Source: Rhizaria sp. SCN 62-66 (Eukaryota). Taken from it: DNA of 20,000 nt. Position 1 is the stretch's first letter. Each line of letters begins with the position of its first letter. Made by a program: the position numbers and the translations under genes. Location of the stretch: contig MEDY01000268.1 in assembly GCA_001724265.1 (NCBI GenBank), positions 44,418-64,417 on the forward strand, in the 5' to 3' direction. A model generated the notes under the pieces. It searched no databases and was not told the DNA's origin. It was given only the letters and a program-made list of their open reading frames with translations. Positions 1 to 20,000 of the stretch are shown here, one piece after another.

Positions 1-3000
1 GCAGTCGAACACCCGTCGGGTGCAGGTGTCGCAGCCATGTTCACGGTGCTGCCTCCCAGAGCTCTCACAACATTCGCGTCGGTGGAAACCACGGTCGCCG
101 CCGTAGAGTTAGCGCACATCGCACCGCTGATACGGAGAGCACCAGTGTCCGCGCTCGCGGCAGCGCCAGCGTCGGTGTTGATGTGCGTGTAGCTCTTCCG
201 CCGGGGGACCTCGATGCCCATCGCACCGCCCCACCAGGCCCCAGTGCCAATGTCTTGGCACCGAAACAACCCGCCATTTCGCCTACCCAGGTTTGCGCAT
301 ATCTCCACGCTCGGAGCCGCGCCCGAAAACGCGCCGCCGGTCGCGTGGACGTCGTCGACGATGCGCGGCGGGAGCAGTAGTGGCGACTGCGGCTGCCCTG
401 CGGGCGGCTGCGTCGGCGCGATCGCCAACTGCTGCAAAGCGTCCGACTCGTTCGAGGGCGAGGCAGGGTGCGAATGGAAAAAGATGCCGTACTCGACCGC
501 GAGCTCCGACTCCGGCAGCGCAAGGCTGACGTTGCTGCTGTTCTGGCTGATGCCATTACCGCTACTCACGGCTGTGCTCGCGGGCAGCGCGGGGTGCCGC
601 TCGCTCTGATCGCGCGGCTGCAGCATGACCCGCTGCAGCAACTGCTGCTGCTCCAGTTGGAGCTCCAGCTGCAGCTGAATCAGCGCCGGGGACGGCGAGA
701 TGTTGATAGGGGGGCCAAACATAAGCGGCGACAGCGACTGCGACTGCTTCTGTGCATGAGCCTGGTGCAAGTTGAGCGCCACCGGCGGCCGACCAACCGA
801 GCGCGTCCAACCGACCGAGAGCGGCTGCGCCTGCGAGATAGACTGCGTCGGCAGCGCTTGACCGGAGAGCGAGAGCGTTGCCTTAACGTCGACGGGCTGC
901 GGGGGCCAGGGTGAGAGCGTGAGTGAAAGCGAGCTCGTGAGCGCCTGCGAGAGCGACTGTGCGCGCGCCTCGGTGGCCACGGTCATCACCGCCGGCCCCT
1001 GCTGCTGCCGCGCCAGCCGCTCCTGCTCGCGCTCGCGCTCGCGCTCGGTTCCGGCCGCGTCGCCGCCCGTGGCTACGCTCGCGTCGACAGCGCAGAAGTC
1101 GGTGGCCCTGGAGTTGGCGCTCGCGAAGAGTGCCCACGCGGGCGACGTCGACGCGGACGAGTCAGCCGACGACGACGAGGACGTCGGTGACGACAGCAGC
1201 GACGACGCGGAGTACAGCTCGGGCGCAGACAGTCCGCCGGCGGGCGATCCCGGCGGCGCTGTCGTCAGGACCGAAGCCTGTTCCGGGGGTGTCACGGTCA
1301 AAATAACCTGTGACGACTGCGCGATGCACTGTTGCAGCTGCAGCTGTGGCTGTTGCTGTTGCGCCATGGGTAACAAGGACAGGGTCACGCCCGCGGCCTG
1401 CTGGAGCAAGAACGGCTTCGCAAGCGGCGCGGCCGCGGCGGCGGCTGTGGCGGGAGAGTGCGCCGGCGTAACCGTTGCGGGGGCGAAACTGAAGCCGCAG
1501 CCGGGCGCAGCGTTGGGAGACTTCCCAAGAGCCGTGCAAAACACGCCGGCAGCGTCAGTGGCAACGCGGGCACCGACAACGTTGGCGGAGACGCTGTTGT
1601 TGGCGTCGTCGTTCTTGCAGTCGGTCATCAGTGTCGCGCCGCCGGCAGCAGCGGAGGCGCTGGCGGGCGCTGAGGAGAGCACGCACAGCCTGCGCGCTGC
1701 TTGCGCCCGCACTGCGTCGTCGGCAGCAGCAGTACTACCAGTAACGGCTGGAACAGAGATACATGTAGTCATGGACACGGGCACGTCGTCGTCGCGAATG
1801 ACATCTGCACCGTCACTCTCATTGTCACTAGCACCGTCGCCGTCGCTGCCACCGTCGCAGTCGCTGTCGCCGCCGCTGTCATCGCCACGTTGGACGCCAC
1901 GATGAAAGCCGCGCTGATAGCCGCCAGCAGGGACGTGCGCCGCGTGCGCCGCCAGCGGCTGTGGCGACCGCACATGGGCGGACCTGCCCAAGACGGGCAC
2001 CCGCAGCGCGTGCACGCCGTCGTCGTCTCTGCTGTCGTCTCTGCAGTCGTCGTCGCTGTCATTGGGGAGGGCACGCTTGTGCGAGCGACCCCGGTCGCGA
2101 CGACCCCGGTCGCGGTCGCGGTGGGTCGTGCAGTGGGCAGGGACGTCACCGCCGGCGGCGCAGAGCGCGGCTCGGCGGCTCGGCGGCTGGCTCGTGTCGG
2201 TCGCGTTTTCGGCGCCATCAGCAGTAGCTGCAGCAGCAGCAGTGAAGCTGCTCTGCAGCGAGAGATTGATAGCGCGCGCCGAGGTGAGGCCAGTAAAGGG
2301 CTCGGTCTCCGAGTCCGACGCAGCGCCGTTGTCGTTGCTGTTGCCCGCGCGGTCGTCGGTGGCCGCGATGTGCGCGACGGCCGCCGCGTCGAAGTCGGCG
2401 TCGGTCGTCCCGACGACCACAGCCCCCGCGGTGGGGGTCGTGGGGTCCGCGGCCACACTTCCAACGTCAATCATAATCTCAGTCGCTACGACTGCTGCCG
2501 CGGCAGCGATGGTTGCGTTCTGAGGCGGGGACGAATCAGTCGTGGGGAGTTCAGTGGGGGTTGAGACCATGGCGGACCGGCAGAGACCAGCAGTCCTAAC
2601 AAATCAAACGCAACATATATGAAGATTAACATTAGCGGCGAATGAAAATAAATTACCAAAATATTGCTATATCGTGAATATACATAGAATTAAAACCTGA
2701 TTTTGAAGTATATCGTGAGAATTCTTCGGTTAAGTTTGTCGAACCGTGTGTTCTGTGATTGTCGTACCTGGCTCGAGAGCTGGGCCGCGAAAGAGCGCCC
2801 CACTTCTGCTGTTGTTCCTGTTGCTGCTGCTGTTGCGCCGCGGCGCGCGGAGCCGGCGAAACCTCAAACGCGCTGGCGGCGTCGCTGGCGCTGGACCCGC
2901 TGAGCGCCGAGTCGCTGTGGTCGTCGCCGTGGCTATCTCCGCGCTGCCACTCCTCCTGCAGCGCGGCCAGAGCGAGCGACGACTTGTGCGTCGGCCACCG

Positions 3001-3777
3001 CAGGCTCAAGACGCCCGCCGCCGCGGCCAAAGAGTCCGTGTGGGCGGGGGCGTCGGTGGCGTTTGCGGCGGCGGCGGGGGCCGCGTGCGCGCCGCTGCTG
3101 GGAGGCGCAGATGGGCAGTGCGCGATGGTTACGTCGCAGGAGATATTATCGGCGGGACGCGGAACCGGCGCGGACGGCTTCGAGTGCGCGTGAAGACTGG
3201 GTTGCATGCTCGGGGAATAAACCCGCACCGCTGCGGCAACTCGGACGATGCTATGCTCTGAAGGAGGCGCGGTGTAGGCAGAGTGCGGTTGAGTCAACGG
3301 GAGCGGGGTGGCAGTTGTGATGGGAGGCACGTCCTGATCTTCGCGAAGTGACCTGGAAACGAGGCACGGTGACGGATCGTTGGCATGTATTTCCTTGAGC
3401 ACGGCCGCGCCTGTGAGGTACATGCTCTTGGTAAACGTTCCGGGGGTCGTACCGTTGAAACTGGGGCGGCAGGGCGGGAGGACGCCACGGCCAAGGAGAG
3501 CAGGCGAAGGCGTAACCAGGGTGGAAGTCGAGCAGGCAGCACATTTCCCACAGTTCTGCCCTGCACATGCACCTACATTAGGAATAAACGGAACTCCTGT
3601 CGTACCGTCGTGCGTGTGCATGGACTTATGCTGGTTTTTGAGCACAGAACTGTCAACGGGAAGTGGGGGCGTCTCCGAGGAGGTTCGCCATTCGTTGGCG
3701 GACGCGAATCTGGACTGCAGAGCCGACGAGGAAATTACGGCGCTCGCCGACGCATCTGTGGCATTAGAATCAGCCAT
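1..3777 (-). CDS. Large low-complexity (Ala/Ser/Gln/Asp-rich) hypothetical protein, 3'-truncated by the window edge; exons 3777-2768 and 2595-<1; >1200 aa
   Basis: Manual translation shows a stop-free minus frame from 2594 to position 1 (TAGLCRSAMVSTPTELPTTDSSPPQ...ATPAPDGCST), absent from the ORF track because it has no stop in the window. It joins ORF 2653..3810 in frame through a phase-2 GT-AG intron. The first ATG is at 3777 (MADSNATD); the true start is uncertain. No domain recognised. Confidence 0.75.
2596..2767 (-). other. Spliceosomal intron (172 nt, phase 2) of the left-edge gene
   Basis: Donor CAG|GTACGA at 2767, CTAAT branch-like motif, acceptor TTTGATTTGTTAG| ending at 2596, and a drop in GC. 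The frame is preserved (AG+G = Arg). An alternative in-frame donor TG|GTAATT lies at 2656. Confidence 0.7.
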
Positions 3778-4141
3778 CTGCAAAACTCGTATCTGTGACA
3801 CTCCTATCACCTAATAGATTATGCAAAATACCAAGTATGGATGTCTAAAAGTGCGAATCAAAAGAGATGCAAGCAGGGGTTAGGGAGGTGGGCGAGGAAT
3901 TTGAAAGAGGAGTTAACACAATGCCCAGTCACTGTTCGGGCGTAATTGTGCAGTATAATATGAAAAACAAGCCATAGTATCTAATTTAATCAAATGCACT
4001 AGTTTTCACTCAAACAAAATCACCTAACGACTCATTTCCTTATGGGCAGGAACGGATCTGAAGCGGCCTAACTTTGGCGACAAGCCTGATATCATGATAG
4101 GTCTCCTTATCGGAGACAAAATCAGGAATTCGGCTACTCTA

Positions 4142-5018: not shown

Positions 5019-6555
5019 TCAGATGTCCCCGATACCGATCATGGACTTCATGATCTTGGACAGCGACGGGTAGTTTGTGAGCATGTGCTTGGGGTTGTTT
5101 TGCATCGCGCTCATAATCACGCCCATCGCAAGCGCGAAAAATCCGTAATCGATGTAGTGGATCTTGGGGAGCCAGCCCCACTTGCGGACGCACTTGTACG
5201 CCGACTGCAGCGCGGGTGACATGCAATAGATGGCGAGCTCGAGCCTGCGCGCCTTGCTCTCGAGCAGCACGGCCAGCCCAGCCATCGGTCCGACCGTGAT
5301 CCACGTGCTCGGGCCCGAGAGCATGTTAAGCCGCATCAACAGACAGCACATGGCCCAGGCGTTGGCGCAGTAGAGCGCGAGGAAAGCGGCGGAGCGAACG
5401 CACGAGCGAAGCAGCGCACGCATCGCGGCGACGGGGTCCTTGAGGAACGCGTGCCAGCGGAAGAGCACGACGGAGGTGAAGTTAAGCGGGAAGTAGAAGC
5501 GCAACGAGAGCTGGAAGAAGTGTTTGATCACGAAGCTGAAGTAGTGCGCCACGCAGCCCTGGCCCGGGTGCAGCACCGCGCACGCGGGATGGCATTGCGC
5601 CTGAATAGACGGGTACAACGCAGCAGAATCAGCCGCAGAGTCAGGCACGGAGTCAGGCACAGAGTCAGAAGGTCGTTGTCGCATCAAATACATACAGAGA
5701 GATAAAATGAGAGATATATGGGCTCAACATTAAGAAAACAGCAGTGTAACAATATATCATAGCAGAGTATATGCGTTTTTAAGAGAAAAACAACAGCTAA
5801 AGGAAGATATGCATGGCGATTTGGAGCGTACCTTGACAGTCTTGGTCTCTGGGTTGAGGAACTTGCTCCACTCGATCGCGCCGAGCCCGCGCGCGCGGCG
5901 GCACGCGTCAATGGCCGCGGTGTCCACGGGCAGCCCGCGGCCGGCGCTGGCGACCATGTTGATCGTCGGCTTCGTCTTCCAGCCGGCCATGAGCAGGAAC
6001 TTAAGATACGAAGGCGGGAGTGTGTCCTGCTCGTAGATGTACGCGAAGAGGATGTGACACGCCGACAGACACAGCAGCGCCGTGTCGCCGTGACGGAAGC
6101 GCTTAAGCGGCGCGGGGTACCACGGCTGGTGGGTCGTGCCGTGGGCGAGGATGGCCATGGCGCGCACGAAGAGGTACACCGCGATCGACGGCCGGTCCGC
6201 GGGCTTGAGCGCGGCGATGCTGCCTGCCGCGATAGCGCCCGAGAGGAACGACGGAAGGTGGCCCTTCTCCTGCGGCAGCACGGCGTGGATGAGCCCCAGC
6301 ATCGCCTTGTACGTCCCCGCGAAGCCGCCCAGGAAGAGACCGAACCGCAGCGACTGCTCGTTGAGCAGGGCCGACACCGATCGCGGGCGGCGCATAGAGA
6401 TGATGTGACCAAGAAGCGCGACGACAACCTTAAGCCCCACGCCAATGCCAAAGTTGCGCACGGCGGAGACCAGCGCGTCCACCACGGGGTGCCGGCGCGG
6501 GGACGAGGAGGCTGCGGCGGCGGCGTCGCTGCATTTGCGGGATGGGCCCTGCTGC

Positions 6556-6587
<32 letters not shown>

Positions 6588-6983
6588 TTGCTGCTGCTGT
6601 TGCTGCTGGGACGAGCTGTAAGGCGTAAGGGTAACGCCACTAGCCGAGGTAAACGTGGCGCGGGGGCCGCTGCCATTGCTGGAGTCGGTGAAGGCGGACG
6701 CGGCGCCAGGGGCGGCTGGGGAGGCAGTGTTTGAGTTGCTCGTTTGAGTGGCGACTCGGTGGAGATCGGAGAAAGGGTTGTTCGCTGCAGTTGCAAGCAT
6801 GCGCTCAGCCGGTGGAGTATCAGGGTTGGACGAGGCGGAAGCAAGAACCGCGGAACTGGGGACGCGACCGCCAATCGGGGAGGGCTCGATATCCAACGCA
6901 CCGCAGAACGAGCAGACGTGTGCGAGGGGCGCAGCGGAGGGCTGCTCTTTCACGGGGATAGACAGCCCGAGGGTTGAACTCAT
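5019..6983 (-). CDS. TMEM135: TMEM135 (PMP52)-family multi-pass membrane protein; exons 6983-5832 and 5600-5019; 577 aa
   Basis: Family-like segments include SLRFGLFLGGFAGTYK, SFLSGAIAAGS, IAVYLFVRA, LFAYIYEQDTLPPSYLKFL, CAVLHPGQGC, RSAAFLALY and LAVLLESKARRLELAIY. ATG at 6983, TGA at 5021-5019, with a phase-0 intron joining TVK|AQCHP. The N-terminal extension is low-complexity and contains Q20. Confidence 0.88.
5601..5831 (-). other. Spliceosomal intron (231 nt, phase 0) of the TMEM135-like gene
   Basis: Donor AAG|GTACGC at 5831 and acceptor TCTATTCAG| at 5601, with about 120 nt free of AG before the acceptor. It contains an in-frame stop at 5757-5759. Confidence 0.88.
5621..5668 (-). repeat. 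Four tandem imperfect 12-mers inside the TMEM135 intron
   Basis: The minus strand reads CTGACTCTGTGC CTGACTCCGTGC CTGACTCTGCGG CTGATTCTGCTG. Confidence 0.85.
6549..6608 (-). repeat. Coding CAG/CAA microsatellite, Q20
   Basis: 60 nt of CTG/TTG triplets on the plus strand, in frame in TMEM135 exon 1. Confidence 0.95.
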
Positions 6984-8191
6984 TTTGTACGAATGTCAAT
7001 CTTTTCACAAAAGTATGGGCTGCCAAAAGTGGGAGTTTGAAGACGAATATTGACGCCGGATATGAACGTTTTGCAATCGTGACGAAGCAACCCCGACCAA
7101 CAGTTTTGAGATCTGACGAGCACCAACACATATTCAAAGATATTCAGCGCCCTATAACGTAGTTAAGAAAGTTTGTTCAGGATTACTTTATTTGCGTATG
7201 CATGATTTACGAATACTTGCATAATTTTTCTTAAAATAACGAATTTACGACAAGAAGTGCCATTTTATGCCGGACTACCTCGTTTTTTCACTCCACCGCG
7301 CAAACACATGTGTTGATTAATGCGATTGTTTGGGCCACATTTATATTTTTGAACAATTTCATAGAACTTTTGCAATTTAAAAACATTCGTAATATGTAAA
7401 ACCTTGCGTAATTTTAGTTGGCAGTGTATATTTGTACTATCAGATAGAAAAATCACTCCCCCTCCAAAGCCTATGAGGTGTTTGACCTATGGTATCTGCA
7501 GCTGCCAGTCATACGGACTTCGCAATAAGAGGAGCTGGTGCTCCCCACTCACCCGACTACACCGACATGCGTGGGATCGAACTTCTGCGTTGTCAAACAG
7601 GGACTCCATCACACCAAACACAGCATCCGTCACGGGTTACACATGGTGTATTAATACACTTGTTGTCGCCACGTGTTTGCTGAGCTTGGTACTCGCGCTC
7701 TTCGACGCCTTCGCGATGCTCGTGGCGATGCTCGCGTTTCTCAGCCTCGCGTAGTCGATCTACAACGCCGCCTTGCTCTGGCCCTCGGTGCCGCATTGAA
7801 CCTGACCTGATCAGGGAGGGTAGGCATTGGCACCTACGACAGATGACATACAAAATCTTACACATAAGCATGAGAACAAACGAAGAATCCGATTTAAACG
7901 ATGTATTTTGCGCCAGAAAGTATCGCAAAAATTCTCGACATCTCTCAAGTTGGTCCCACCACGAGCGCAACTCAGACCACCGAATTGATAACAGGGTAAG
8001 TTGCGTGAAACACCGCTGGACTGCGTCGCCGTCGCCAAATGGGGACGACATCTTCGTAAAGCATCGTGTTAATGTCGAAAAAAACGTTGTGTTTATATTA
8101 ATCCTATGATTATGATATAAAATTTTATGGAAAATTTACGTCATTTCCAATCCGCACATCGTTACGGTGGTAAGCAGAGCACTACACAGCC

Positions 8192-11100
8192 TCAAGCCGT
8201 GCCCTCACGCCTCTCATCAGTGAGTGTCATCAGCACTGCGACCTGTCCATCACCAATACTCACCGTCTGCGCGACGTGCTGCATGAGTACCGCGCTGCGC
8301 AGCACGGTCGGCGTCGTGCGGTCGCTGCCTTCGCCGCCGCCCCAGCGCCAGACCTCGCCGCGCGGCGTGAGCCCCAGCGTGAAGCCCGCGCCGGCGACGA
8401 AATCGACGAGGCGCCGCCACGGCTGCAGCGGCCGGAAGCCCGACGTCAGCTCCACGGGCGCCGCCGTGAGCCCGCCGGAAGTGGTCGCAGCCAGCGTACT
8501 GTATCGGCGCCGCCCCGCCGCGCCCGCCGCGGCCAGCGCGGCGGAGTTGAACGCAGCGCTGCCACCACCACCGGCGGCAGCGTCGGCGGCGTCGGGCGGC
8601 AGGTGGCCGAGACTGAGGGCGCCAAAGCGGCCGCCCGCGGATCGCAGCAGCAGACCGGCGGCGCGGGCCGCGATGCTGCCGGACGCCACGGGCGACGGCG
8701 ACAGCGGGTCCTTGCTGCCGTCGGCGTGGCCGCGAGACTGGCCGGAGACGGGAACAGCGAGCGTTTGCGACTGCGAGAGAGGGAAGTTGGTGCGCCCAGT
8801 CGTCGTCGTCGTCGTCGGCGTCGCCGTCGTCAAACTAGCGCTGTTGCTGTGGCCGATGCCGTGCAGCTGGGCCTGCGAGTGCGACGGTGTGATGAGTGGC
8901 GAAGGCAGCGGCGACAGCTCAACATGCTTCGAGTTTGAGCTTATCGACGGCGTAGTCACCGTAGTTGGCATTGTACCACTGTTTGCGCTTGTGTCGATGA
9001 CGGGCGGCCGCTGGAGGAGCGAGAATGAGGCGCCGGGAGCAAAAATAGACTTGCGGTCGCGCATCGGCCCGGCTAAGGGAGTGCTGACATTGCTGTCCGG
9101 CGGCGCAGTGGCGGAGTTGTGCTTCGCGGGCTTGCAAGGTGTCTGCGTAAACGGACTAAGTTCGTCGCAATTTTCGCTGATATTCTTGCGTTGCGTGCTA
9201 CCGTTATTGCCCGCACTCGCCTCAGCGCCTTCCGCAATACTTGACGTCTGCAGTGAAGAGCTCGCCGCTGCACCGCTGCCAGTGCTGCTTCTGTTTCTGC
9301 TCGCGGTTGCTGTGTTCGCGTGCGTGTTAGTGCGCACGGTCGAGTACAGCCGACCTTCTTCACTGAGCACCGCGGCGTGGTCCATGCCCGCGCTGACCTT
9401 AAAGGCCTGCACGCGGAACAGCGACATCACCAGCTGCGGCTCCGCGATCACGCGGTCGCTGCGCGCGTGGCCCAGCTGTCCGTTGTCGTTGAGTCCCCAG
9501 GAGTAGACGTTGCCGTCGCGGCCGACCGCGTAGGTGAACCCGTGTCCGCACGAGACCTGTGTCCACCACTCGACCCACTGCGGCCGGCTCAGCTTGCGCG
9601 GCTTGACTACGACAGGCGGCACCGCGCGCGACGGGTCGTCGGTCGGGTGTCCCAGCTGGCCCTGCAGCGATACGCCCCACGTGTAGAGCGCGCCTGTCGA
9701 CGTCACGGCCGCGGCGTGCGTCAGGCCGACCGAGATGGCGGCCACGGCGCGCCCGCTGAGGTCCGGCACGGGGAACGGCAGCAGGGCGTCGTACTCGCCC
9801 GCGGCCGGCGGCGCCGTCGGCAGCGTGAGGAACGGCACCGTGTGCGCGGTCGCGATGCGGCGACGCAGCTGCGACGGACTCCCGCCCATCGGCGACGACG
9901 ACGACAACATGGCGGAGATGCCCGCGGGGCTACGGGGCGAGAACGGCGACTGCGGGCCCTGTGACTGCGACTGCTGCTGCTGCTGCTGCTGCTGCTGTTG
10001 ACGCGAGGGCGAGTGCAGCATGCGACGCGCCTCGGCCAGCGCGGCCGCAGAGAAGTTAGGCCGCCCGTTGCTGTAATTGTGGTTCGCTCCCATCGCGGAC
10101 GACTCAGCAATGAGACTCAGCGCGCCGCCGCTCGGAGCGTCGTTCTGCGCGGCGGCCGCGGCAGCCTGGTCCATGAGACGCAGCAAGTCGGTCGCAATTG
10201 TGCCGCGCTTCACCAACGCCGGCGGCTGCTGTGAGCCCCCCGCGCCGCCAGAGCCCACGGTGGCGCCGGCAACAATACTGCTGACACTGGTCGAGAGCTG
10301 GCGTGCAAACGGAGACATGGGCGTGCCGGGGGACATGCCGCCAGACGCACTGTCGCTGCCACTCTGCTGCTGCTGCTGCTGTTGCTGTTGCTGTCCAGTA
10401 CTGACGACGCCACCCTCGCCGAAGTGCCGCGCCGCGGCGAAAGCGGCTGCGGCTGCGGCGGCGTTGCGCGAGAGCACGCGCACGATCTCCTCGTTGGGGC
10501 CCGCGCCCTTGGCGGCAGCGCGGCGGGCCTTCTCGCGAGTGCGCCGCGCGGCCTCGTTCGCGCGCCGCGCCGCCGGGTCGGCGCTGTCGATGCCGAGCAC
10601 GCCGAACGCGCCGGAGCCGCAGGAGAAGACGCTGTCGTCGTCAGTGATGAAGAACGACCAGTGCCGGCCCGCGGCGACGGCGACGACGACGGCGCGCGCG
10701 AGCAGCGACGAGCCATGGTGCAGCGAGCACGGCCGCGGGCGAGGCGCGCGGTCGCCCAGCCCGAGCTGGCCGTAGGCGTTGTCGCCACAAGAGAAGGCCT
10801 GGCCGCGGTCCGTCAGCAGCAGCGTGTGGCGCCCGCCCAGCGCGATGCTGGCCACGGACTCGCGCAGCCGCAGTAGCGTCGGCGTAGCCACAGGAGGGAT
10901 CCCCGCAAAGGCCTTGACAATAAACGTATGCGACGGCGCTGGCGCGGCGATGGTCGGCGCCGCTGCGCCGGTGAGCGCGGGCGGCGCGGACTTGCTGTCG
11001 AGCGGTCCCAGACCGATCTGCGCGGTGCCGGCCTCGCCCCAGACGAAGGGCAGCGTGACGGTGCTGACGAGCGCGGCGGAGCGGTTCTGCTGCTGCTGCA

Positions 11101-14100
11101 CCATCAGCGGCGACGACGACAGCGAAAACACAGACGGACGCGCCTGCCGCAGCGGGCCCAACGACGGCGACGGAGCCGTCACCGGCGTGCGCTGCAGAGT
11201 GCGCAGTAGACGCTTGTGGCCCGCGACAAGGCGGTCGACGGAGAAGCCGATGTCGAAGGCCTCGTCCGTCTCATCTGCATCGCTTTGGCCCGCCGCCCTG
11301 GCAGAGGGCTTGCCACTGGATTTGCTGTCATCGCCACTGACGTCGTCGGCGTCGCTAGTTGTTGTGTCCATGCGTCTGTCGGCGCCAGACTCGGATTCGT
11401 TCTCGTGATCGTTAGCGTCGTCATCGTCGCTGTCGCTTTGGTCCTTGAGGTTGAACGTGCGCACGCCGTCGACCTTCGCTCTCAGCTTGCCGCCGCCAGC
11501 GTCACCGCCATGCGCGAGGGACGGCGGCAGCATCACGTGCGGCAGCGCGTACGCGTGCTTCTTCTTCTTCTTGCCGGTGCCGCTCTTGTGACTCGGACTC
11601 TCAGTTTCATCGTCTTCGAGCGCGTTGAGTGCGGTGGCAACGCGGTTGAGATCCTCCAGCGTCGGCCTATGCGCCAGCGCAAGAAGCAGACTGTGCGCCG
11701 TCTTCTCGTACGCACCGCGCCGCACGCCGCCGCTGTTGACGCTAAGGCGCCGCGCGCCCGCCTCACCGTCCCCCTGCTGCTGTTGCTGCTGTTGCTGGAG
11801 GTGGCTCTGCGCGAGCGCGAGCGCGGGGTCGGCCTCGGTGGTGTGCGACAGCACCGCCGCCGACTCGGGCGCGGGCCGGCGCTGTAGGAAAGACGACAGC
11901 AGGAACTCTTTCTCCTTCTTGGCCGCCGCGCTGAGCTGCACGCTGTCCAGGTCGCGGCGCAGGCGCTCCAGTAGCATCGCGTCCGCCTTGCCCGCCAGCA
12001 CGCTGCCGCGGTGGCCGCCCGCGCCCGGGCCCGCGCCGGGGCCGCCGCCGCCCGTCATCGCGGCAGCTGCCGCGTGCGCCGGCAGAAGCAGCGGGCGCAC
12101 GGCGAGGCTTGCTTCGAGCGTCTTGGCAGCGGCCTCGCGCGCGGCCGCCGTCTGCGGCGCCACGATGCGCCGCAGCGCGGCGAGCGTCGCCGCATCGACG
12201 TTGCCCGCGCCGCTGGCCGCGTTCATCACCGGCGACGTGGCCGATGACGGCTGCGATCCAGAGCCAGTGCCAGAGTCAAAGCCGTGTACACTGGAGCCCT
12301 TTGCGGAGATGCTAAAGCCGGGGCGCCCGATGCGGCCGCGCTCGCCCACCCCGGGCTGCGTGCCGACCGTGGGCACCTCGAAGTTAAGCCGCGGACGCTG
12401 GGCGAGCAGCGCTGCGAGCTGCGAGATGCGGGCCGCCGCGAGCGCGTGGCCGCCGCCGCGCGACTGTTGCTGCGCCAAGAGCTCCGACGTGAGCGTCTGT
12501 GTATGGTGGCGGTGCCGCGCGAGAACTGAGCTGCGGTCGCGCGCGCCTGGGCTGCCCATCGCGCCATTCGCGCCGTTGCGCGTCGGCGAGTGCGCGGCTG
12601 CAACGGCTGCGGCAGCGGCGGCGGCCGCGGCGGCTGCGGCTGCGGCGTTGGTGGCGTCCTTACTGCTGACCGGCGCCGCTGTCGCCGCCGCAGCGGGCAC
12701 GGGGGCGCTGACCGTGGGCGCGGCGGTGGCGAGCCGGCGCGTCGTCGAGTTCGAGCTGCTGGCTGCGGCGGCCGCGGCGGCAACGGCGGCGGCGGGCCCC
12801 GGCAGCAGCGTCACCAGCCCCAGCCCCGCGGCGGCGCCGGAGCGTTCGCGCGCGAGGCCAGAAGGCGTGCGGATCTTGCGTAGCGGGCACAGCAGCGCGC
12901 CGTCGGCCGCGGAGGCGTCGCCGTCGCCGATAGCTGCGTCGCCACCGAGGTCGGAATCCGGGCCGAGGCTGCGGTGGCCCGGAAGACTGCCAGTCAGACT
13001 GGGTGCAACACGTGTCGACGCCGTCGCAAGTGCGCTGGCGCCGGAACTTTTCCCGTTGTGAGGAGGCGGCCGGCGCGGCGAAGCTTGCGAGTGCGGCCGC
13101 GGCACCGTGTCGCCGTGGTGTTGCTGTTGCTGTGGTTGCGGAGGCGCGTTCCACGTGTACTCACTGCGGTTCCCGCCGTTGGCGTTGCCGCTGTGTGCGG
13201 AGGCGGGGCGCACGAACGACGCCGTGTCGGTGGGACCCAGCGCGCGCGCGCTCAGCGGCGGCGGGTGCGGCCGTAGCGCCACGGCCGCAGCGCCGCCGCC
13301 ACTGCTTTTGCTGTTGCCGTTCACGCCGCCGTGCGAGACGTTCGCCGCGCTCGATCCCGCGTGACCCGCTGTACCTGTGGCGTGCGCGCCGGAGTTGCTG
13401 TGTGCGGCGATGGCGGCGGAAAGGCTTTGCGGCGCCGCACTGGCGACGCTCCAGCGCGCGCTCGCGGCTACCGCGGCCGCGGCCGTGTGGCCGCGGATGC
13501 GCGCTTCGCTCGCGCTTTCATCCGCGCCGGGCAGCGGCAGCGGCAGCGCCAGTGCGGCGCCGGGGCCGGGGCCAGCGGCGGTCAAGCTGAGACCGAGGCC
13601 GAGAAGGGCGGAGGATGGGAGTGATGTGATTATGTTACTCGACGCGTCCGCCGCGCCGTTGGCCGTTGCAAGGAGCTGCATCGGGGGCTTGAAGTGGCCG
13701 GGCAACGGCGCCGTGAGCCGGAAGCTGCTGTTGGCCGCCCCCGCCCCTGCGCTCTGCTGCCGCCGCTGCAGTCGGTCGTCCACGCTCGCGCGCCCACCGA
13801 CGTTAATATGATGCTGTTGCTGTTGATGAAGAGGAAGCGAGGGCGCCGCGCGAGGGCTGGAGAACAGGCTCGCGAAATGCGACGCTTGCGTCATCGACAT
13901 CGACGGCGACTGCGACTGCGGGCCGCCGCGGGCAACCACGGCGCTAGTGTGCGGCCGCTGCAGAGGTGTGGTGTGTGCGCCGCGCTTGTTGTCACCGGTA
14001 GCAAACCCGTTCGCGTGTGCGAGCACGAGCGTGGCCTTGCGCAGGGCCGCCGCGCTGCCGCCGCCCGTTGTTGGTGTTGTCGCCGCAGTGGCCGAGGATG

Positions 14101-15256
14101 CTGTCGCAAGTGCGCCTTTGCTCGGCAGCGACGAGACGGCGGAGTCAGCGAAGCACGCCACGGTGCCGCCGCTGCTGCGCGTGACGACGACGTCCGCGGC
14201 GACAGCGTCCGCGGCGGCGCGGACGGCGGCGTCCATGCGCGGCGAGTGCAAGTACCCCGCGTGGCTTTGCACCGCGAGCTGACCGCCGCCGCCATTGACC
14301 GAAGAGTGACTGTGCGCTGCAGAGAAGCCGCCACGGGCCGAGCGGAAGCCGGAGGACTGCATATGCGCGTAGCCCGCGCTGGCGAAAGAGCCGCCGCCGT
14401 GGTGGCGGGCAGACTGGCCGCGCGCTGAGTGGCTGGTGTGCGCAGGGGCAGCGGTGGCGACAGGGTTGCCCCAACCGACTGCGCCGCTGCTGCTGGAGCT
14501 GGTGGACATGTTGTATCCGTTGACGTCCGCGCCTGGGACGTCGTCGTCGAACACGGGGTCTGTGGCCGATACCCAGCCACGCGCGCGCTGCGCCGCTGGT
14601 CGGGGCGCAGTCGCAGGCGAGAGCGCGGGAACGTAACCCGTGGCTGTAGGACTCATGAGTACGGGGCCTGCAATGCTTCCTGCGGCGCAGCCGTCAGCCG
14701 AGGGGAGACTGGCCGTGCGGGCCAGAGCGGGGCCGGCGACCACAGACTGCTGTTGTTGGTTCTGAATCTGCTGTTGCTGTGAGAGCGCTGCGGATAGCGA
14801 GAGCGGTGAGACGAGCGAGTGACCGCGGGCGCCGCCGTGGTTGGGGTTGTGTGGGTACGCAGTGCCGGCGCGGGACCGGGAGCGCGCCGACAGCAACGGC
14901 GACACAGCCGTCGTCACAGTCGCGTTGTTGCTGCTGTTGCTGCTGCTGCTGTTGCTGGCGTAGCTGGCGTTGTTGGCGATTGCGTTGGCGTGGGCGTGGT
15001 TGGCCGTGTGGGGGCGCGATAGCTGCGGCGGGGGCGGGTTCGCGCCCGAGCTTGCGGTGGGCAGCGCGGGCGAGTCGACGCCGCCGGGGCCTGAGCCAGG
15101 AGCGAATGCCGACGAACCAGAGACGTAACTGGAGGACGGGGGGCCGGAGGGGGCGACTCCGCTGCACAGAGTTGTGGAGAGGTGCGCAGTGGCAACTGTG
15201 GGGGCGGAGAATGGGTCTGCAAAGCTCGGCAAAAGTGCCGGGAGGGTAGGCTCCAT
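8192..15256 (-). CDS. 2354-aa RCC1-repeat (RCC1/BLIP-II beta-propeller) protein with a long disordered N-terminal region and RPEL-like motifs; apparently a single exon
   Basis: 7065-nt ORF from ATG 15256 (an in-frame TGA lies upstream) to TGA 8194-8192. RCC1 signatures include IALGGRHTLLLTDRGQAFSCGDNAYGQLGLG, VAAGRHWSFFITDDDSVFSCGSGAFGVLG, ISVGLTHAAAVTSTGALYTWGVSLQGQLGH, VSCGHGFTYAVGRDGNVYSWGLNDNGQLGH, VSAGMDHAAVLSEEGRLYS and FVAGAGFTLGLTPRGEVWRWG. Confidence 0.9.
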   Translation of the reverse strand: MEPTLPALLPSFADPFSAPTVATAHLSTTLCSGVAPSGPPSSSYVSGSSAFAPGSGPGGVDSPALPTASSGANPPPPQLSRPHTANHAHANAIANNASYASNSSSSNSSNNATVTTAVSPLLSARSRSRAGTAYPHNPNHGGARGHSLVSPLSLSAALSQQQQIQNQQQQSVVAGPALARTASLPSADGCAAGSIAGPVLMSPTATGYVPALSPATAPRPAAQRARGWVSATDPVFDDDVPGADVNGYNMSTSSSSSGAVGWGNPVATAAPAHTSHSARGQSARHHGGGSFASAGYAHMQSSGFRSARGGFSAAHSHSSVNGGGGQLAVQSHAGYLHSPRMDAAVRAAADAVAADVVVTRSSGGTVACFADSAVSSLPSKGALATASSATAATTPTTGGGSAAALRKATLVLAHANGFATGDNKRGAHTTPLQRPHTSAVVARGGPQSQSPSMSMTQASHFASLFSSPRAAPSLPLHQQQQHHINVGGRASVDDRLQRRQQSAGAGAANSSFRLTAPLPGHFKPPMQLLATANGAADASSNIITSLPSSALLGLGLSLTAAGPGPGAALALPLPLPGADESASEARIRGHTAAAAVAASARWSVASAAPQSLSAAIAAHSNSGAHATGTAGHAGSSAANVSHGGVNGNSKSSGGGAAAVALRPHPPPLSARALGPTDTASFVRPASAHSGNANGGNRSEYTWNAPPQPQQQQHHGDTVPRPHSQASPRRPPPHNGKSSGASALATASTRVAPSLTGSLPGHRSLGPDSDLGGDAAIGDGDASAADGALLCPLRKIRTPSGLARERSGAAAGLGLVTLLPGPAAAVAAAAAAASSSNSTTRRLATAAPTVSAPVPAAAATAAPVSSKDATNAAAAAAAAAAAAAAVAAAHSPTRNGANGAMGSPGARDRSSVLARHRHHTQTLTSELLAQQQSRGGGHALAAARISQLAALLAQRPRLNFEVPTVGTQPGVGERGRIGRPGFSISAKGSSVHGFDSGTGSGSQPSSATSPVMNAASGAGNVDAATLAALRRIVAPQTAAAREAAAKTLEASLAVRPLLLPAHAAAAAMTGGGGPGAGPGAGGHRGSVLAGKADAMLLERLRRDLDSVQLSAAAKKEKEFLLSSFLQRRPAPESAAVLSHTTEADPALALAQSHLQQQQQQQQGDGEAGARRLSVNSGGVRRGAYEKTAHSLLLALAHRPTLEDLNRVATALNALEDDETESPSHKSGTGKKKKKHAYALPHVMLPPSLAHGGDAGGGKLRAKVDGVRTFNLKDQSDSDDDDANDHENESESGADRRMDTTTSDADDVSGDDSKSSGKPSARAAGQSDADETDEAFDIGFSVDRLVAGHKRLLRTLQRTPVTAPSPSLGPLRQARPSVFSLSSSPLMVQQQQNRSAALVSTVTLPFVWGEAGTAQIGLGPLDSKSAPPALTGAAAPTIAAPAPSHTFIVKAFAGIPPVATPTLLRLRESVASIALGGRHTLLLTDRGQAFSCGDNAYGQLGLGDRAPRPRPCSLHHGSSLLARAVVVAVAAGRHWSFFITDDDSVFSCGSGAFGVLGIDSADPAARRANEAARRTREKARRAAAKGAGPNEEIVRVLSRNAAAAAAAFAAARHFGEGGVVSTGQQQQQQQQQQSGSDSASGGMSPGTPMSPFARQLSTSVSSIVAGATVGSGGAGGSQQPPALVKRGTIATDLLRLMDQAAAAAAQNDAPSGGALSLIAESSAMGANHNYSNGRPNFSAAALAEARRMLHSPSRQQQQQQQQQQSQSQGPQSPFSPRSPAGISAMLSSSSPMGGSPSQLRRRIATAHTVPFLTLPTAPPAAGEYDALLPFPVPDLSGRAVAAISVGLTHAAAVTSTGALYTWGVSLQGQLGHPTDDPSRAVPPVVVKPRKLSRPQWVEWWTQVSCGHGFTYAVGRDGNVYSWGLNDNGQLGHARSDRVIAEPQLVMSLFRVQAFKVSAGMDHAAVLSEEGRLYSTVRTNTHANTATASRNRSSTGSGAAASSSLQTSSIAEGAEASAGNNGSTQRKNISENCDELSPFTQTPCKPAKHNSATAPPDSNVSTPLAGPMRDRKSIFAPGASFSLLQRPPVIDTSANSGTMPTTVTTPSISSNSKHVELSPLPSPLITPSHSQAQLHGIGHSNSASLTTATPTTTTTTGRTNFPLSQSQTLAVPVSGQSRGHADGSKDPLSPSPVASGSIAARAAGLLLRSAGGRFGALSLGHLPPDAADAAAGGGGSAAFNSAALAAAGAAGRRRYSTLAATTSGGLTAAPVELTSGFRPLQPWRRLVDFVAGAGFTLGLTPRGEVWRWGGGEGSDRTTPTVLRSAVLMQHVAQTVSIGDGQVAVLMTLTDERREGTA
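9971..10000 (-). repeat. Coding CAG microsatellite, Q10, within an RCC1 insertion
   Basis: (CTG)9 TTG on the plus strand. Confidence 0.9.
10364..10393 (-). repeat. Coding CAG/CAA microsatellite, Q10, within an RCC1 insertion
   Basis: 30 nt of CTG/TTG triplets on the plus strand. Confidence 0.9.
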
Positions 15257-15947
15257 CAGAGTCCGCAGCTGTTGCTTGGAGCAGGAGTGTCGCGAGCTGG
15301 AACGCCAAGGCTTGACGTTGCGAGGCAGGCTTATTCAAGTCGCTCTAGTGAGCTTTCCTAAAGCCAGGTAGTGTACTAGCCAGACAATTTCGAAATTAAA
15401 CAGTACTTCGAACCGACTCTCCGTCTTATATGTCCAATAATCTAAGTGATATGCGTTGCGAGTGGCGCGTGCGAGGGAAGTCGTCGACGAGTTGATGGGT
15501 GAGCTAGTGTAACGGAAGGAGCGCTGAAAGGAGTTATATAAAGAGATAGAACAATGTGATTTTAAGTACAGCGAGGTGTAATCGTAAATTGCCGATCATT
15601 GCGACCGCTAGATCTCCGCACGGATTATAAGTCTCTTGTCAGGTCCTTTCGTTATGACCGTTTCGTCACTGTTCCCAACCTCGCGCCTGGCCACTGTTGT
15701 GACGCAAACTCATAACATCGATTGGACTTGACCAGATCAATACCGCTACAACCGATGTAAAGGTATGTTGATTTATTGTTGCTATAAAACTTAAACACTG
15801 CAATTTTAATACAGCTGCGCGTCACTCTGGCCACGAATCATATTATTATCAGATCATATCCATCGCAGAGAGATGTGTCCACTCCTTCACATTTCTCTTC
15901 GCACAAATCGCTCACACGCTCTTACACCCATACGCTTTCACGCTCAC

Positions 15948-18190
15948 TCACTGGTAGAACGCGCTGCGCGCAGGCGCCTTAATGCCCGCGACCCGGCGCG
16001 GCGGCGCGCGCTCCAAGTACGCCAGAGTGTCGTACCACTCGCACTTGGCCGCGGCCTCTTCCGTCATTCCACGAGCACTGCCGTTCTCGCTGTTGCTATC
16101 ACTGGCAGCCTTGCAAGTGCGTGCTGCAATGCGGGCGCTGCGGGCGACGTAGGGCAGCATGGGTAGCCCGTCGGGCCCCAGTTCCTCCTTGCCCTCCGCA
16201 CTCGCACTCGCCTTCGGACTGGCACTGGCGTTACATTCAGCGCTGTTCGTGACACAACGCGCCTTGTTGACCGCGACGCCGTCGCGCATGCCAATGCTGA
16301 CGCAGTAGTGCCCCTGAATGAGGTGCCACTCCTCGAACTCGTCGAAGATCTCGATCCGCTCCGTCCGCTGCAGCACCCCCCGCTCGATGTAGTAGCCGTA
16401 CACGTCGTTCATGCTCCACGCGCCGTGCCGCGCGAAGCCCAGCTCGAGGAAGCGTCGCCGCTGCGCCTTGAGGTCCGGGTAGGCAGGCAGCCCAAGCAGC
16501 GGGCAGCCGCGCGCCGCGAGGTTGGCCATCATGGTGCGCCCGAACGGGTCGTTGGGGTGGATCTGTTCGTATGTGGCCAGCACCACGGGCCCCGTAAACG
16601 CGCCAACGACGCCCGAGCCCAGGACCGTGGCGGTGACTGGCGCGCCGTTGCTGTTGCTGGTGTCGGCGCTGGCCACGGTCGTCGTCTTGAGCACCGTCTC
16701 CGTCTCCGCGTCAGCAGCTGCGCTGTTGCTGTTGCTGTTGCTGTTGTCGGTCTCGCTCGCGCTCGCAGCCGCCGCAGCCGCTGCTGCAGCGGGAGTGGGC
16801 AGGGAGGCGACGTACGACAGCACGCCGGCGCTATCGTGCGGCTTCATGTACACGAGCACACACTCGGACAGAAACAGCGTCGGAGCCGCGAAGTTAAGCC
16901 GCGTGTGCTGAGTCAACAAAGCGTGGAGCGCGGGGATGTCGCGCAAGTCGGCGCCCACGAGCGCAAAGTCGCGCCAGCGGCCGCGCGCCGCGCCGAGCTC
17001 AGGCAACTGCGACTATGACGGTGTCGAGGAGGAGGACGACGACGACGACGATGACGAGGCAGATCCGCTACTGCATGAGTCGGCGTATGCAATGTTGAAG
17101 CAGTTGGGGTTGGGCGCGGCGAGGTGTGTCTGGAGCTCAGGCGTGGCGGCGATGATCGCGAGCTTCTGCGCCACAGACGACTCGAAGTCGATCTCGACGT
17201 AGTAGTCTGGGGTCTGCCGGGGGTCACCGGTGGCCTTGAGGCGCCAGTAGGTGGTGTCAAAGCCCGCGCCCAGAGACACAACCTGAGAAGTCAAACAAAA
17301 CAACACAACATAGCAGAACAGAAAATGGTTGTGAGAAGCGAGATGTGAGCATGTGAGAGTACAACTTATCTGATGGATGAGAAGCACTTAAACACGTGCA
17401 AGATATAAACGGTCAGTGAATGGTCAAGGTTTCGCGCTTAACGCGGGCGGCGTACCTGTGCAGGAAGCCCGTGCGCGCGCGAGACGGCGACGAACTCCTG
17501 GAGCAGCTGGTCGAGCGCCTGCACGCGGGAGAAGTACCCGCGGTTGATGAGCGGGGACCGCCGCACGAAGGCTGGCGGGAGAAGTGTCGCGGGCGCGGGC
17601 GCGGGGGCCGGCGCGGGCACAGTGGTGGCCGCGGATGAGGAGGACGACGCCGTGGCGGCGGAGCCGCCCAGGGGAGCGGGCTGGACCGGGGCGGGCTGCG
17701 CCGGGGCAGCATCAGTCTCGGGAGCGGCAGCAGAGGCAGCGGCGGGGGTTGGGGTCTGAGGTGCGCGGGGGCGGGTGTTGGGCAGCGCCGGGTGGGCAAA
17801 AAAGGTGATAAAGTCGTCCTTGAAGTAGCCCAGCTGCGCCGCGGACCTGTGGCGGGACAGCGAAACAGCGGAGCGCGTGTGACGAGATGAGCGAAGAAGC
17901 AAGGAAAGATGACGAATTGCGGCGTGACAAGAGGACAGAGAGTGAGCGCGGCCGAGGAGATATATATAAAATAGGCAAGATAACCGATGTTGACAAAAAT
18001 GATGGCTCGGCGGACATTGAAACGGTCGGCGCAGTGTGCAAGGGGAGGATTGCAAGAAGAGGGATGATGCGACTAGAGGATTGACATACAGCTTTGAGAG
18101 AATAGCATCGTTGGCGGTCTTGCGGACCTCGAGGCCAGCATTGACACCGGCAGCGGCGTCCTCCAAACCCATGGGGCCGGTGGCTTGCAT
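15948..18190 (-). CDS. LCMT1: Leucine carboxyl methyltransferase 1 (PP2A C-terminal methyltransferase; LCMT1/PPM1); exons 18190-18090, 17846-17456 and 17282-15948; 608 codons with one in-frame TAG at 17015-17013 (codon 254)
   Basis: Motifs: VRKTANDAILSKL|SAAQLGYFKDDFITFF, RRSPLINRGYFSRV, Q|VVSLGAGFDTTYWRL, YVEIDF, LVGADLRD, PTLFLSECVLVYM, YEQIHPNDPFGRTMMANL, ERIEIFDEFEEWHLIQGHYC. There is no C-terminal Kelch region, so LCMT1 rather than LCMT2/TYW4. Functional status is uncertain because of the TAG. Confidence 0.9.
17283..17455 (-). other. LCMT1 intron 2 (173 nt, phase 0)
   Basis: CAG|GTACGC donor, pyrimidine tract and TTGACTTCTCAG| acceptor; splicing restores QVVSLGAGFD. Confidence 0.9.
17847..18089 (-). 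other. LCMT1 intron 1 (243 nt, phase 2; length a multiple of 3 and stop-free)
   Basis: CT|GTATGT donor, CCCGCCACAG| acceptor and pyrimidine-rich body; splicing restores SKLSAAQLGY. Confidence 0.88.
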
Positions 18191-18505
18191 TGCAGAGCGC
18201 GCGCTGAAGACCGATGTGAGATTTGAAAGACATTACGAAGTCAAGTGGTTGGGGGACAGGGGTGGGAGTCGGTGTGAGTGAAGGGTTGCCCGAAAAGATC
18301 ATTAGAGAGAGACAGCAAGCAGTTCAAGACATATAATAGAAAGAAATTGCTTTTTATATCAGATCCCGTATTGAGTTATTTGGAAAGTCGCAGGTGACGG
18401 ATATTTAGCGAGAGTGAGCATCCGATTCTTGAACCCTCGCGCACTCACTCATCAACCACGACTGCACCTCGCCCCACGCACTTCGCTCTTTCGCTCCAGA
18501 CCGGC
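18191..18505. promoter_or_regulatory. Probable bidirectional promoter region between LCMT1 and RPC11
   Basis: Divergent ATGs are 315 bp apart, with an AT-rich core at about 18330-18380 (CATATAATA, TTTTATAT). Inferred from gene geometry only. Confidence 0.55.
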
Positions 18506-19228
18506 ATGAGTTCATTCTGTCCGCTGTGCGGCAACGGTCTTCAGATCAAGGAAGACGCTCAGCTACGTTATATCTGCCGCACGTGCCCTTATACGTGCTC
18601 TATCGTCCGCGACCAGATTTTCCCCCTCAACCTCAAGAAGAAGCAGGTTGACGATGTCCTCGGCGGCTCCGAGGCCTGGGAGAACGTCGACAAGACCCAG
18701 GGTACGCATACATGCTACAATACGTTTGTATCACCTCTGTTTTATCCCCACAGCGCGTGTGTTTATCCTCCAGTACTTATCGTGCCGACCGTTTTCCCAC
18801 TCTTTCACGCGCGCTTACTCACACTCTCTCTTTTTTTCTCTCTGTTCCCCGTTCGATGTTTTGTTGCGACTCTACAGTCACGTGCCCCAAGTGCGGCAAC
18901 CAAGAAGCCTATTTCATGCAGATTCAGACGCGCTCTGCCGACGAGGTACGCCTTTTTTGCACTCTTCCAACTCTCTCACTCTCCCATACCAACACACACG
19001 CTTGGCTTGACGCTCTTAACTAACACACGCCTCAGGACTTGACTCACTCATGTTATATCTCTATCTATACTATACTCACTTTTTCATGTTTATCTTTTAT
19101 TTCAAATTTCACCACTTGTTGTTTGTCATTCCTGCTGCCGCTATTCTCATAATCACCCACAGCCGATGACGACGTTCTACAAGTGCACCAACATGCGCGA
19201 GTGCGGCGCCCGCTGGAAGGAAGGTTAA
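18506..19228 (+). CDS. POLR3K: RNA polymerase III subunit C11 (RPC11/RPC10/POLR3K); exons 18506-18701, 18878-18945 and 19163-19228; 109 aa
   Basis: The spliced product is MSSFCPLCGNGL...CRTCPY...[64 protein letters not shown]. It has two zinc ribbons, the C11-specific VDDVLGG..AWENV segment and the TFIIS-like QTRSADEP acidic hairpin. TAA at 19226-19228. Confidence 0.96.
18702..18877 (+). other. RPC11 intron 1 (176 nt, phase 1)
   Basis: G|GTACGC donor, pyrimidine-rich body and CTCTACAG| acceptor; the frame is restored (G+TC = Val). Confidence 0.93.
18946..19162 (+). other. RPC11 intron 2 (217 nt, phase 0)
   Basis: GAG|GTACGC donor and CCCACAG| acceptor; splicing restores [10 protein letters not shown]. 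Confidence 0.93.
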
Positions 19229-20000
19229 AGCTTGGCAACAGCGCTCAAGCAAGCGTACGCCACGCCACGCAGCTTGCTTGTATTGCATTTTGCTTTTCCT
19301 CAGCCTTGCGATGGTCATTTATTGGTGACAGGTGGCCACGCGCCGCACCGCAGGCGCCACAGACAAGCGTCTCATCAGCGCGTACTGTCTTTGCGTCTGC
19401 TCTGAGGCGCTCAAGCAGCCCGGCGTCCCGTCAGTGATGTCAGACGCAGTGCGGTGCGCGCGTATGCAGTGCTAGAGCGTGGCCGATGCGCGCCGTTGCA
19501 ACCGCCGTCTTTAGCTACGTCTGCGTGTAACCGCAGTCGTTGGCCACTACTCTCATTTCCACCCCCGTAGATACCACTTGTTACTTAGTTCTCACAGCAA
19601 CCTCGGCATTCAGGACAGATGCTTGTCGTTGCTCTCTATTGTATTTCAAATACACTGTCTTATTCTTAGTCTCGTTTGTTCATGCCCGTATTCTTCTTCT
19701 TGAAAGCTTATGACTTCTCACCGCTTCCCTTGCGTCAAGAACCGATGGTTTTTCAGCAAGACACCAATGCTTACGCTGTCGTAGAACTGATTAGCATAGT
19801 TCCATAAAAAGAGGCGTACCCATCGGTCGGTGAGTGCGTTTGTCAAGCTCGCTTGTTGATATTCATTTTGATGGGAAGGCAGCGGTTCTGAAAAAAGCCA
19901 TTAAGGTAACTTTCAAAAAGTTCCGCCCCCTTTTTCGGAAAGTTTCGTCAGAAAATGTATTAAAATCAGGAATGAATCAAAACAGCAGTGAATTGAAAAA

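Follow-up and report, generated by a model that had tools for sequence, protein, structure and literature searches.

Does a single TAG in the middle of an otherwise intact LCMT1 gene end the protein, or is it read as an amino acid? The codon occupies positions 17013..17015, on the minus strand, of a 20,000-nucleotide stretch of DNA from Rhizaria sp. SCN 62-66 (the window, analysed here as a whole). An earlier note, made from the sequence alone, had offered four explanations: gene-specific readthrough, a very rare sense codon, a CAG-to-TAG mutation and a consensus error. The rare sense codon is the one that held up; the other three are unlikely. The reading that we prefer, with a probability of roughly 0.78, is a variant nuclear code in which UAG is a rare codon for glutamate and UAA and UGA are stops.

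The TAG joins two open reading frames (15948..17006 and 17013..17387) in one frame (...STPS*SQLPE), as the note had seen. In our exon model, which lies on the minus strand throughout, exon 1 (18090..18190, 101 coding bases) opens with an ATG placed by the frame and is followed by intron 1 (17847..18089, 243 nt, GT..AG), which a spliced contig from sequencing run X5 omits. Exon 2 (17456..17846, 391 nt), modelled from the sequence, is separated by a predicted phase-0 intron (17283..17455, 173 nt, GTACGC..TTCTCAG) from exon 3 (15948..17282, 1335 nt), which has 444 codons including the TAG and runs to a terminal TGA at 15948-15950. The TAG is codon 254 of 608, and the 253 amino acids ahead of it match the length that had been forecast for a product stopping here.

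Comparison with Pfam and the PDB agrees with the description of an otherwise intact LCMT1 that has its TAG in a Ser-rich linker. With the TAG scored as X, exon 3 gives one match to the Pfam LCM family (residues 1-158, 47.6 bits); scored apart, its halves reach 24.4 and 25.3 bits. Human LCMT1 (3iei) aligns to exon 3 on both sides of the TAG (residues 1-53, 105-160 and 235-335), and the codon itself (X90 of the exon) falls in a Ser-rich insert that has no human counterpart. Directly upstream, the Ser-rich low-complexity linker (17016..17075, minus strand) is likewise outside the human alignment. The LCMT1 position is itself uninformative about the inserted residue, and the assignment of Glu to it comes from other loci. 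A second copy of LCMT1, which the note had thought worth seeking, did not turn up in the genome, where the sole other LCM-family match is a bacterial-type methyltransferase.

The earlier argument from splice phase also stands. After the conserved helix of LCMT1, GT occurs only in phases 1 and 2, and all of the AGs between the TAG and 16908, four in number, are in phase 0, so a GT-AG intron cannot excise the TAG in frame. Two phase-0 GC dinucleotides (17159 and 17090) are dissimilar to the LCMT1 donors, GTATGT and GTACGC. Contigs from three of four runs, which represent three separate studies (X3, X4 and X5, of which X3 is possibly the source run itself), differ at the TAG site by no letter, in a comparison of assembled contigs that hides minor alleles and leaves out the repeat at 17019-17066. 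The contig from the fourth run, X7, ends before the TAG. X4 also contains contigs from relatives, at 85-88%.

The assembly that holds the window is eukaryotic (34.9 Mb, 714 contigs), and the genome was found in bioreactor and wastewater runs. Among homologues that carry a species name, with multi-domain outliers excluded, the best matches to its PP2A B56 are from Mataza sp. D1 (65%) and Paulinella chromatophora (61%), and a quick tree of this one gene, built from 45 of the 120 matches, unites it with both of them at 100%, on a long stem. Dynein heavy chains occupy at least 11 loci of the genome, and the host is probably a flagellate filosan cercozoan. A test of rhizarian affinity by the polyubiquitin junction met no assembled junction among the loci covered. 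It is GC-rich with long GT-AG introns, and is not a ciliate.

TAG inside genes and at gene ends

Across the genome, UAG appears to be a sense codon, with UAA and UGA as the terminators. We trained a coding model on the genome itself, applied it to 159 loci (789 kb, roughly 2% of the genome and in part selected for TAG) and recorded which stop came first once 80 coding-like codons had passed. This stop was TAA in 66 cases, TGA in 40 and TAG in 15. Coding-like sequence continued beyond 13 of the 15 TAGs, but beyond 1 of the 66 TAAs and none of the 40 TGAs (13/15 versus 1/106, Fisher p = 1.5e-14); the two exceptional TAGs, with noncoding sequence behind them, are both preceded by a donor-like site. 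The 69 putative gene ends, which were set by the coding model rather than by transcripts, comprise 44 TAA, 25 TGA and no TAG (p = 1e-7 were TAG at its 20.7% share). This comparison of ends with interiors, which the note had proposed, extends its observation that the four complete genes of the window end in TGA, TGA, TGA and TAA and none in TAG.

A stricter, two-sided filter retained 24 TAGs, 3 TGAs and no TAA in approximately 142,000 coding-like codons. Five of the 24 TAG sites come from twenty unselected 10-kb stretches and the others from loci partly fetched for TAG, so the rate of about 1 per 6,000 codons, well under 1% of Glu codons, is an estimate on the upper side. At such rarity none would be expected in the 4,000 other codons of the window. 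The argument that the note had raised against genome-wide reassignment, based on those codons, is therefore unsupported. The codons flanking the 24 sites are diverse and TAG is missing from the putative ends, which speaks against programmed gene-specific readthrough; context-dependent stops of the Condylostoma kind were likewise rejected on the 0 of 69 putative ends, with a small share possible. Five sites of a looser filter (L152, L166, L170, L056 and L181) are apparent wrong-frame calls that are missing from the stricter set.

In-frame UAG occurs without an alignment gap in eRF1, in kinases and in the Ubc6-like enzyme, so no intron fits at these positions. The only eRF1 found has a TAG within exon 2 and terminates in TAA; it aligns without gaps to residues 30-266 of human eRF1, with the TAG opposite E107. 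We found no second eRF1 in the genome, in which the remaining family match is Pelota. The same 1626 letters of the gene are present in a second assembly (locus L191), and a metagenome scan for close eRF1 relatives returned this identical locus alone (1 of 32 loci).

Among 142 Pkinase matches, nine have a lone TAG and one a lone TAA, four have mixed stops, and a lone TGA does not occur; five of the nine lone TAGs are interior and four are intron acceptors. A search with PK_Tyr_Ser-Thr added one further interior TAG, making six kinases in total, and the other two of its three new lone TAGs were dropped as intron acceptors. The interior TAG of the L070 kinase lies in an insert and was excluded from residue scoring. 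In the Ubc6-like enzyme, the interior TAG is opposite D in yeast Ubc6 and S in human UBE2J2. Genes with strong codon bias lack it: no interior TAG was found in 43 DEAD or 54 kinesin matches, the one lone TAG of each of these two families being an intron acceptor, and two TAGs in dynein AAA_6 matches are intron acceptors by appearance. Past codon 142, TAG is absent from the longest nine of the dynein frames, which total about 25,000 codons, an alignment of dynein paralogues gave no informative TAG, and a Pfam match was absent from 12 of 13 further TAG regions. The TAG in LCMT1 is real, and is neither gene-specific nor the sign of a broken gene.

A CUA-anticodon tRNA, eRF1 and the inserted residue

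The note had suggested looking for a tRNA with a CUA anticodon, and the genome contains one intact gene with a Glu-type body. A pattern search, blind to intron-containing tRNA genes, gave 19 matches, of which one is a real tRNA (contig C84, locus L085 1489-1561, minus strand). It scores 58 bits in Rfam, is also called by ARAGORN, has standard pairs throughout and an oligo-T run behind the gene, and the eukaryotic genes on either side share its genome's codon style. Compared with 19 other tRNA types of the same organism, it is closest to Glu(CUC) (score 68, 47/73) and then to Glu(UUC) (score 51), and its scores against the tRNA-Gln of the organism are 34 and 24 (38-40 of 73). The first five acceptor pairs are shared with the tRNA-Glu of the organism, and the T stem also with Glu(CUC). 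The body of this tRNA points to a tRNA-Glu, evidence that is independent of site counts and favours Glu as the residue.

ARAGORN labels any CUA tRNA as Pyl. tRNA-Pyl has a 6-bp anticodon stem and a reduced D loop; the standard cloverleaf, 5-bp anticodon stem, D-loop GG and T-loop UUC set the present tRNA apart from it. No UUA anticodon occurs among the 20 tRNA types seen, in searches that were not targeted at UUA.

The D and T arms of the CUA tRNA are closer to bacterial tRNA-Glu than to that of the host, and a bacterial origin is possible. All 120 bacterial tRNAs returned as sharing these arms, a set picked by the D/T-arm pattern itself, have Glu anticodons, and the anticodon loop of 87 of them is one change from that of the CUA tRNA. 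The bacterial matches are all G1, whereas the CUA tRNA has U1-A72 as in the host tRNA-Glu; chosen by pattern and uniformly G1, they do not establish a transfer to the host. Four viral scans (0, 0, 6 and 0 matches) yielded no donor: two of the six matches resemble Glu-type CUA tRNAs, one of them called by ARAGORN, and are only 48/73 identical. Blastn to phage tRNA-Glu gave no significant match (E 0.2-7).

Substitutions in eRF1, also on the list of the note, are present as well. T32S and G57S each occur in 0 of 118 homologues and T58K in 1 of 118, and there are further changes at L124M and K130Q; E55, NIKS, L69, S70 and YxCxxxF are unchanged. Thr32 bonds the guanine of UAG (PMC5304391), and these changes lie at or beside the residues for the third stop base, from which we infer that they may affect the reading of UAG. 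T32A is lethal in yeast (PMC4381064) and reduces release at UAA and UAG equally (PMC3384315), so the effect of T32S is unpredictable from that of T32A. T32S retains the hydroxyl.

Glu as the residue at UAG has moderate support from the sites and the tRNA, which both favour it over the Gln (SQSQ) that the note had guessed. In the column of the eRF1 TAG, the 118 homologues have E 106 times, D 11 times, V once and Gln never; the closest homologue (P0004, 84%) has Val at this position. The TAG of the C18 kinase falls in the hinge column, in which 27 kinases of the same organism have E 20 times, D four times and Q never. Pfam bits summed over eight sites, for the eight residues out of 20 that were tried, are highest for E (599.7), followed by Q (595.6), K (594.3), D (593.3), S (589.3), Y (582.0), L (579.1) and W (576.8), a lead for Glu of 4.1 bits over Gln, 10.4 over Ser and 20.6 over Leu. 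Glu is the sole best residue at four sites, is tied with Gln at one and is 0.3-0.4 bits below D or K at three, and one site supplies 2.4 bits of the lead over Gln. No residue stood out in a model of flanking residues, in which E minus Q is 2.3 bits, compared with 9 to 39 for true Glu sets and -67 to -1 for Gln sets. This result would suit a young codon, produced at tolerant sites when point mutations hit many different neighbouring codons.

A proposed code and its alternatives

We propose that C36 was replaced by A in a tRNA-Glu that had been duplicated or acquired, giving a CUA anticodon that would pair with UAG by Watson–Crick rules and not with UAA, a logic that is established (PMC5304391). 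eRF1 would have been altered around the third-base pocket, and UAG would have been lost from gene ends and have come back in coding sequence at low frequency. LCMT1 would then be translated through to the TGA at 15948-15950 as a protein of 608 amino acids, with Glu in a tolerant linker. The TAGs, their absence from the sampled gene ends, the tRNA gene and the eRF1 changes are observed; charging with Glu, the effect of the eRF1 changes, the efficiency of decoding and the order of events are predictions of this scheme.

The strongest competitor, which overlaps with the proposed code and which we regard as a minority possibility to be taken seriously, is an ambiguous intermediate in which the Glu-type CUA tRNA and eRF1 compete and UAG is Glu part-time. 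Selection would have cleared UAG from the ends of genes and from the bulk of coding sequence, and the eRF1 UAG may be a feedback switch. TAG is indeed far below other A/T-rich synonyms at similar codon totals (about 24, against 754 GAA and 749 TTG in the training set, in which GAG and CTG number 5702 and 5256), and interior TAG is missing from the long dynein frames and the DEAD and kinesin matches. The count of one CUA gene found versus eight Glu(CUC) loci also fits competition, as does the TAG in eRF1, a strongly biased gene. Equal rarity would, however, be expected of a young and fully efficient codon, and no TAG occurs at the 69 putative ends. That TAG stands at a kinase hinge and inside eRF1 and LCMT1, both single-copy, speaks for efficient decoding.

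The eRF1 gene has a GC3 of 0.89-0.94 and yet carries the TAG, and the codon behind it is the only AAA among the 22 Lys codons of exons 2-3. A gene this long would carry a TAG by chance with a probability of 4-7%, a coincidence without significance, which makes the idea of feedback suggestive at most. In bacteria, RF2 is made by a frameshift at an internal stop in its own message. Plant eRF1 is subject to an autoregulatory circuit of readthrough and NMD (PMC5397192). As in those systems, release-factor expression here could depend on a termination codon in its own message; unlike them, the internal UAG would be at codon 107 and decoded by a tRNA, an arrangement that is purely hypothetical. We consider it rather unlikely that the code is early and ambiguous in this specific form, with a single Glu-type CUA tRNA, possibly bacterial in origin, set against an altered eRF1 and the eRF1 UAG acting as RF2-like negative feedback on the balance of termination and Glu insertion.

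Less likely again is a genome-wide sense UAG with a different meaning, of which Gln (the Iotanema case) or a Glu/Gln mixture would be the most plausible. Two TAGs lie in Gln runs (both in L063) and one is opposite the Gln of the organism's own ubiquitin (L141); Gln is also second in the Pfam sum, and a separate GlnRS (contig C9) is present alongside a cytosolic GluRS (C207) and one of mitochondrial type (C27). CAG-to-TAG transitions in tolerant Gln runs would, however, be expected under Glu too, and the absence of Gln from the eRF1 (0/118) and kinase hinge (0/27) columns and the poor alignment of the CUA tRNA to tRNA-Gln (24-34 versus 68 for Glu-CUC) argue against it. Leu, at 20.6 bits behind, fares worse still.

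The standard code, with the LCMT1 TAG as a nonsense allele or a case of gene-specific readthrough and the other TAGs as independent lesions, is very improbable. To our knowledge, LCMT1 is not known as essential in protists, and its TAG is in an unconserved linker, both of which would suit a null allele. This explanation nevertheless demands nulls in the sole eRF1 and the sole LCMT1 found, lesions that are always TAG and never TAA (24 TAG, 3 TGA, 0 TAA), the absence of TAG from gene ends and the chance presence of a CUA tRNA that is intact. Least credible is a consensus error, editing or a GC-AG intron that ends at the TAG: the AG of the TAG is a potential acceptor for the phase-0 GC at 17090, and the site is known from contigs rather than raw reads, but the letters agree in three runs and studies (one possibly the source), the eRF1, kinase and Ubc6-like alignments are gapless at their TAGs, and an X5 contig crosses the LCMT1 TAG unspliced to 17018 while another X5 contig is spliced at intron 1 (weak evidence, as X5 is flagged as probably DNA).

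Relation to known UAG-only codes

Glu at UAG with UAA and UGA as stops is most likely new among nuclear UAG-only codes; in a partial coverage of the literature, we found no nuclear code with UAG as Glu and UAA as a stop, and no cercozoan case beyond exLh. The rhizarian exLh (Sainouroidea) reads UAG as Leu and Iotanema spirale reads it as Gln (Panek et al. 2017, PMC5304391). As in both, UAG is sense here and UAA and UGA are still stops, and exLh is likewise rhizarian. The residue differs (most likely Glu here), as does the evidence: a CUA tRNA is predicted in the account of those two, and its gene was found here. The eRF1 of Iotanema is likewise changed at T32, but to T32G, compared with T32S, G57S and T58K with L69 kept here. 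In Iotanema, roughly 8% of the codons for Gln are UAG (PMC5304391), whereas its share of the Glu codons of the present organism is far below 1%.

Other changes confined to UAG are described in phyllopharyngean ciliates, as Leu in three TARA MAGs and as Gln in Hartmannula and Trochilia, and also in Protocruzia (Gln) and Scotinosphaera (Ser) (PMC11687900). The present code resembles these in that UAG alone is changed, the CUA tRNA derives from a canonical isoacceptor and the case is built on genome data without proteomics. None of the UAG-only codes listed there uses Glu, and the host here is a non-ciliate whose B56 falls in a clade with Mataza and Paulinella.

Glu at UAG is itself known from codes in which UAA is also reassigned. 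Oligohymenophorea sp. PL0344 reads UAG as Glu and UAA as Lys, with UGA as the sole stop and ten CUA genes (PMC10553269); it shares with the present case a tRNA-Glu-like CUA tRNA that reads UAG as Glu, but in the present genome most putative ends are UAA and the search gave a single CUA gene. Both UAR codons are Glu in peritrich ciliates (PMC11687900) and Blastocrithidia (PMC12153298). UAG is read as Glu there as we propose here; unlike in those codes, UAA is at 44 of the 69 putative ends here, continues into coding-like sequence in 1 of 66 cases and accounts for 0 of the 27 stops with coding-like sequence on both sides.

If the proposed code is correct, this organism would represent a second rhizarian lineage with a change of UAG alone, to a residue different from that of exLh. 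With the tRNA gene and eRF1 both in hand, unlike in exLh and Iotanema, the separation of UAG from UAA is directly testable. The rarity of UAG may mark an early stage and bears on the codon capture and ambiguous intermediate models, and codes this rare could escape surveys that are built on frequent codons. In this host, an organism of wastewater and bioreactor samples, the products of eRF1, LCMT1 and a number of kinase genes would be cut short by standard annotation.

Surroundings of the LCMT1 gene

Pfam matches were used to identify the frames neighbouring LCMT1. On the minus strand are a 2380-codon frame with RCC1 repeats (window 8192-15334) and a TMEM135-like gene (5019-6995), and the plus strand encodes an RPB9/RPC11-type zinc-ribbon subunit (18398-19300). 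Two further minus-strand frames (3-2603 and 2653-3810) have no Pfam match. Short contigs from sequencing run X4 are approximately 85-88% like the window at 17130-17204 and 18087-18160, stretches that both exclude the LCMT1 TAG; judging by this resemblance, they come from a related strain or species. Elsewhere in the genome, a 1385-codon frame (L080, G000:C41) encodes a bacterial-type LCM-family methyltransferase enlarged by low-complexity inserts.

Ubiquitin genes and the base after stop codons

Divergent, single-unit ubiquitin genes (L139, L142, L143 and L146) start with MSMQIF and end with GG-HPQ, and several of them lie in tandem on contig C3. We take their extra Ser to resemble the rhizarian polyubiquitin insertion; no unit-unit junction is assembled in the loci seen. 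A ubiquitin-like domain with an interior TAG is fused to an unrelated tail at L141 (G000:C681 3012-3227), on a contig of lower GC content, and is possibly a mobile element.

Across the 159 sampled loci, the base directly 3' of putative terminal TAA or TGA codons shows a strong purine bias (G in 48/69, A in 14/69).

Relatives of eRF1 and origin of the CUA tRNA

The closest eRF1 homologue (P0004), from another metagenome, is 84% identical to that of this organism and shares its K58 and V34. T32 is retained in this homologue, and Val occupies position 107, the site of the TAG in the organism's own gene. Two unrelated metagenomic eRF1 genes (L204 and L205) carry in-frame TAA or TGA where the counterpart of the pair has Gln, a pattern that probably reflects ciliate-type codes.

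The tRNA-Glu-type gene with a CUA anticodon (L085 1489-1561, G000:C84, minus strand) has D and T arms that exactly match bacterial tRNA-Glu, with whole-length identity of up to 60/73, and a host-like acceptor stem; it is identical to the host's own tRNA-Glu at 46-47 of 73 positions. Its source may be bacterial, organellar or ancestral.
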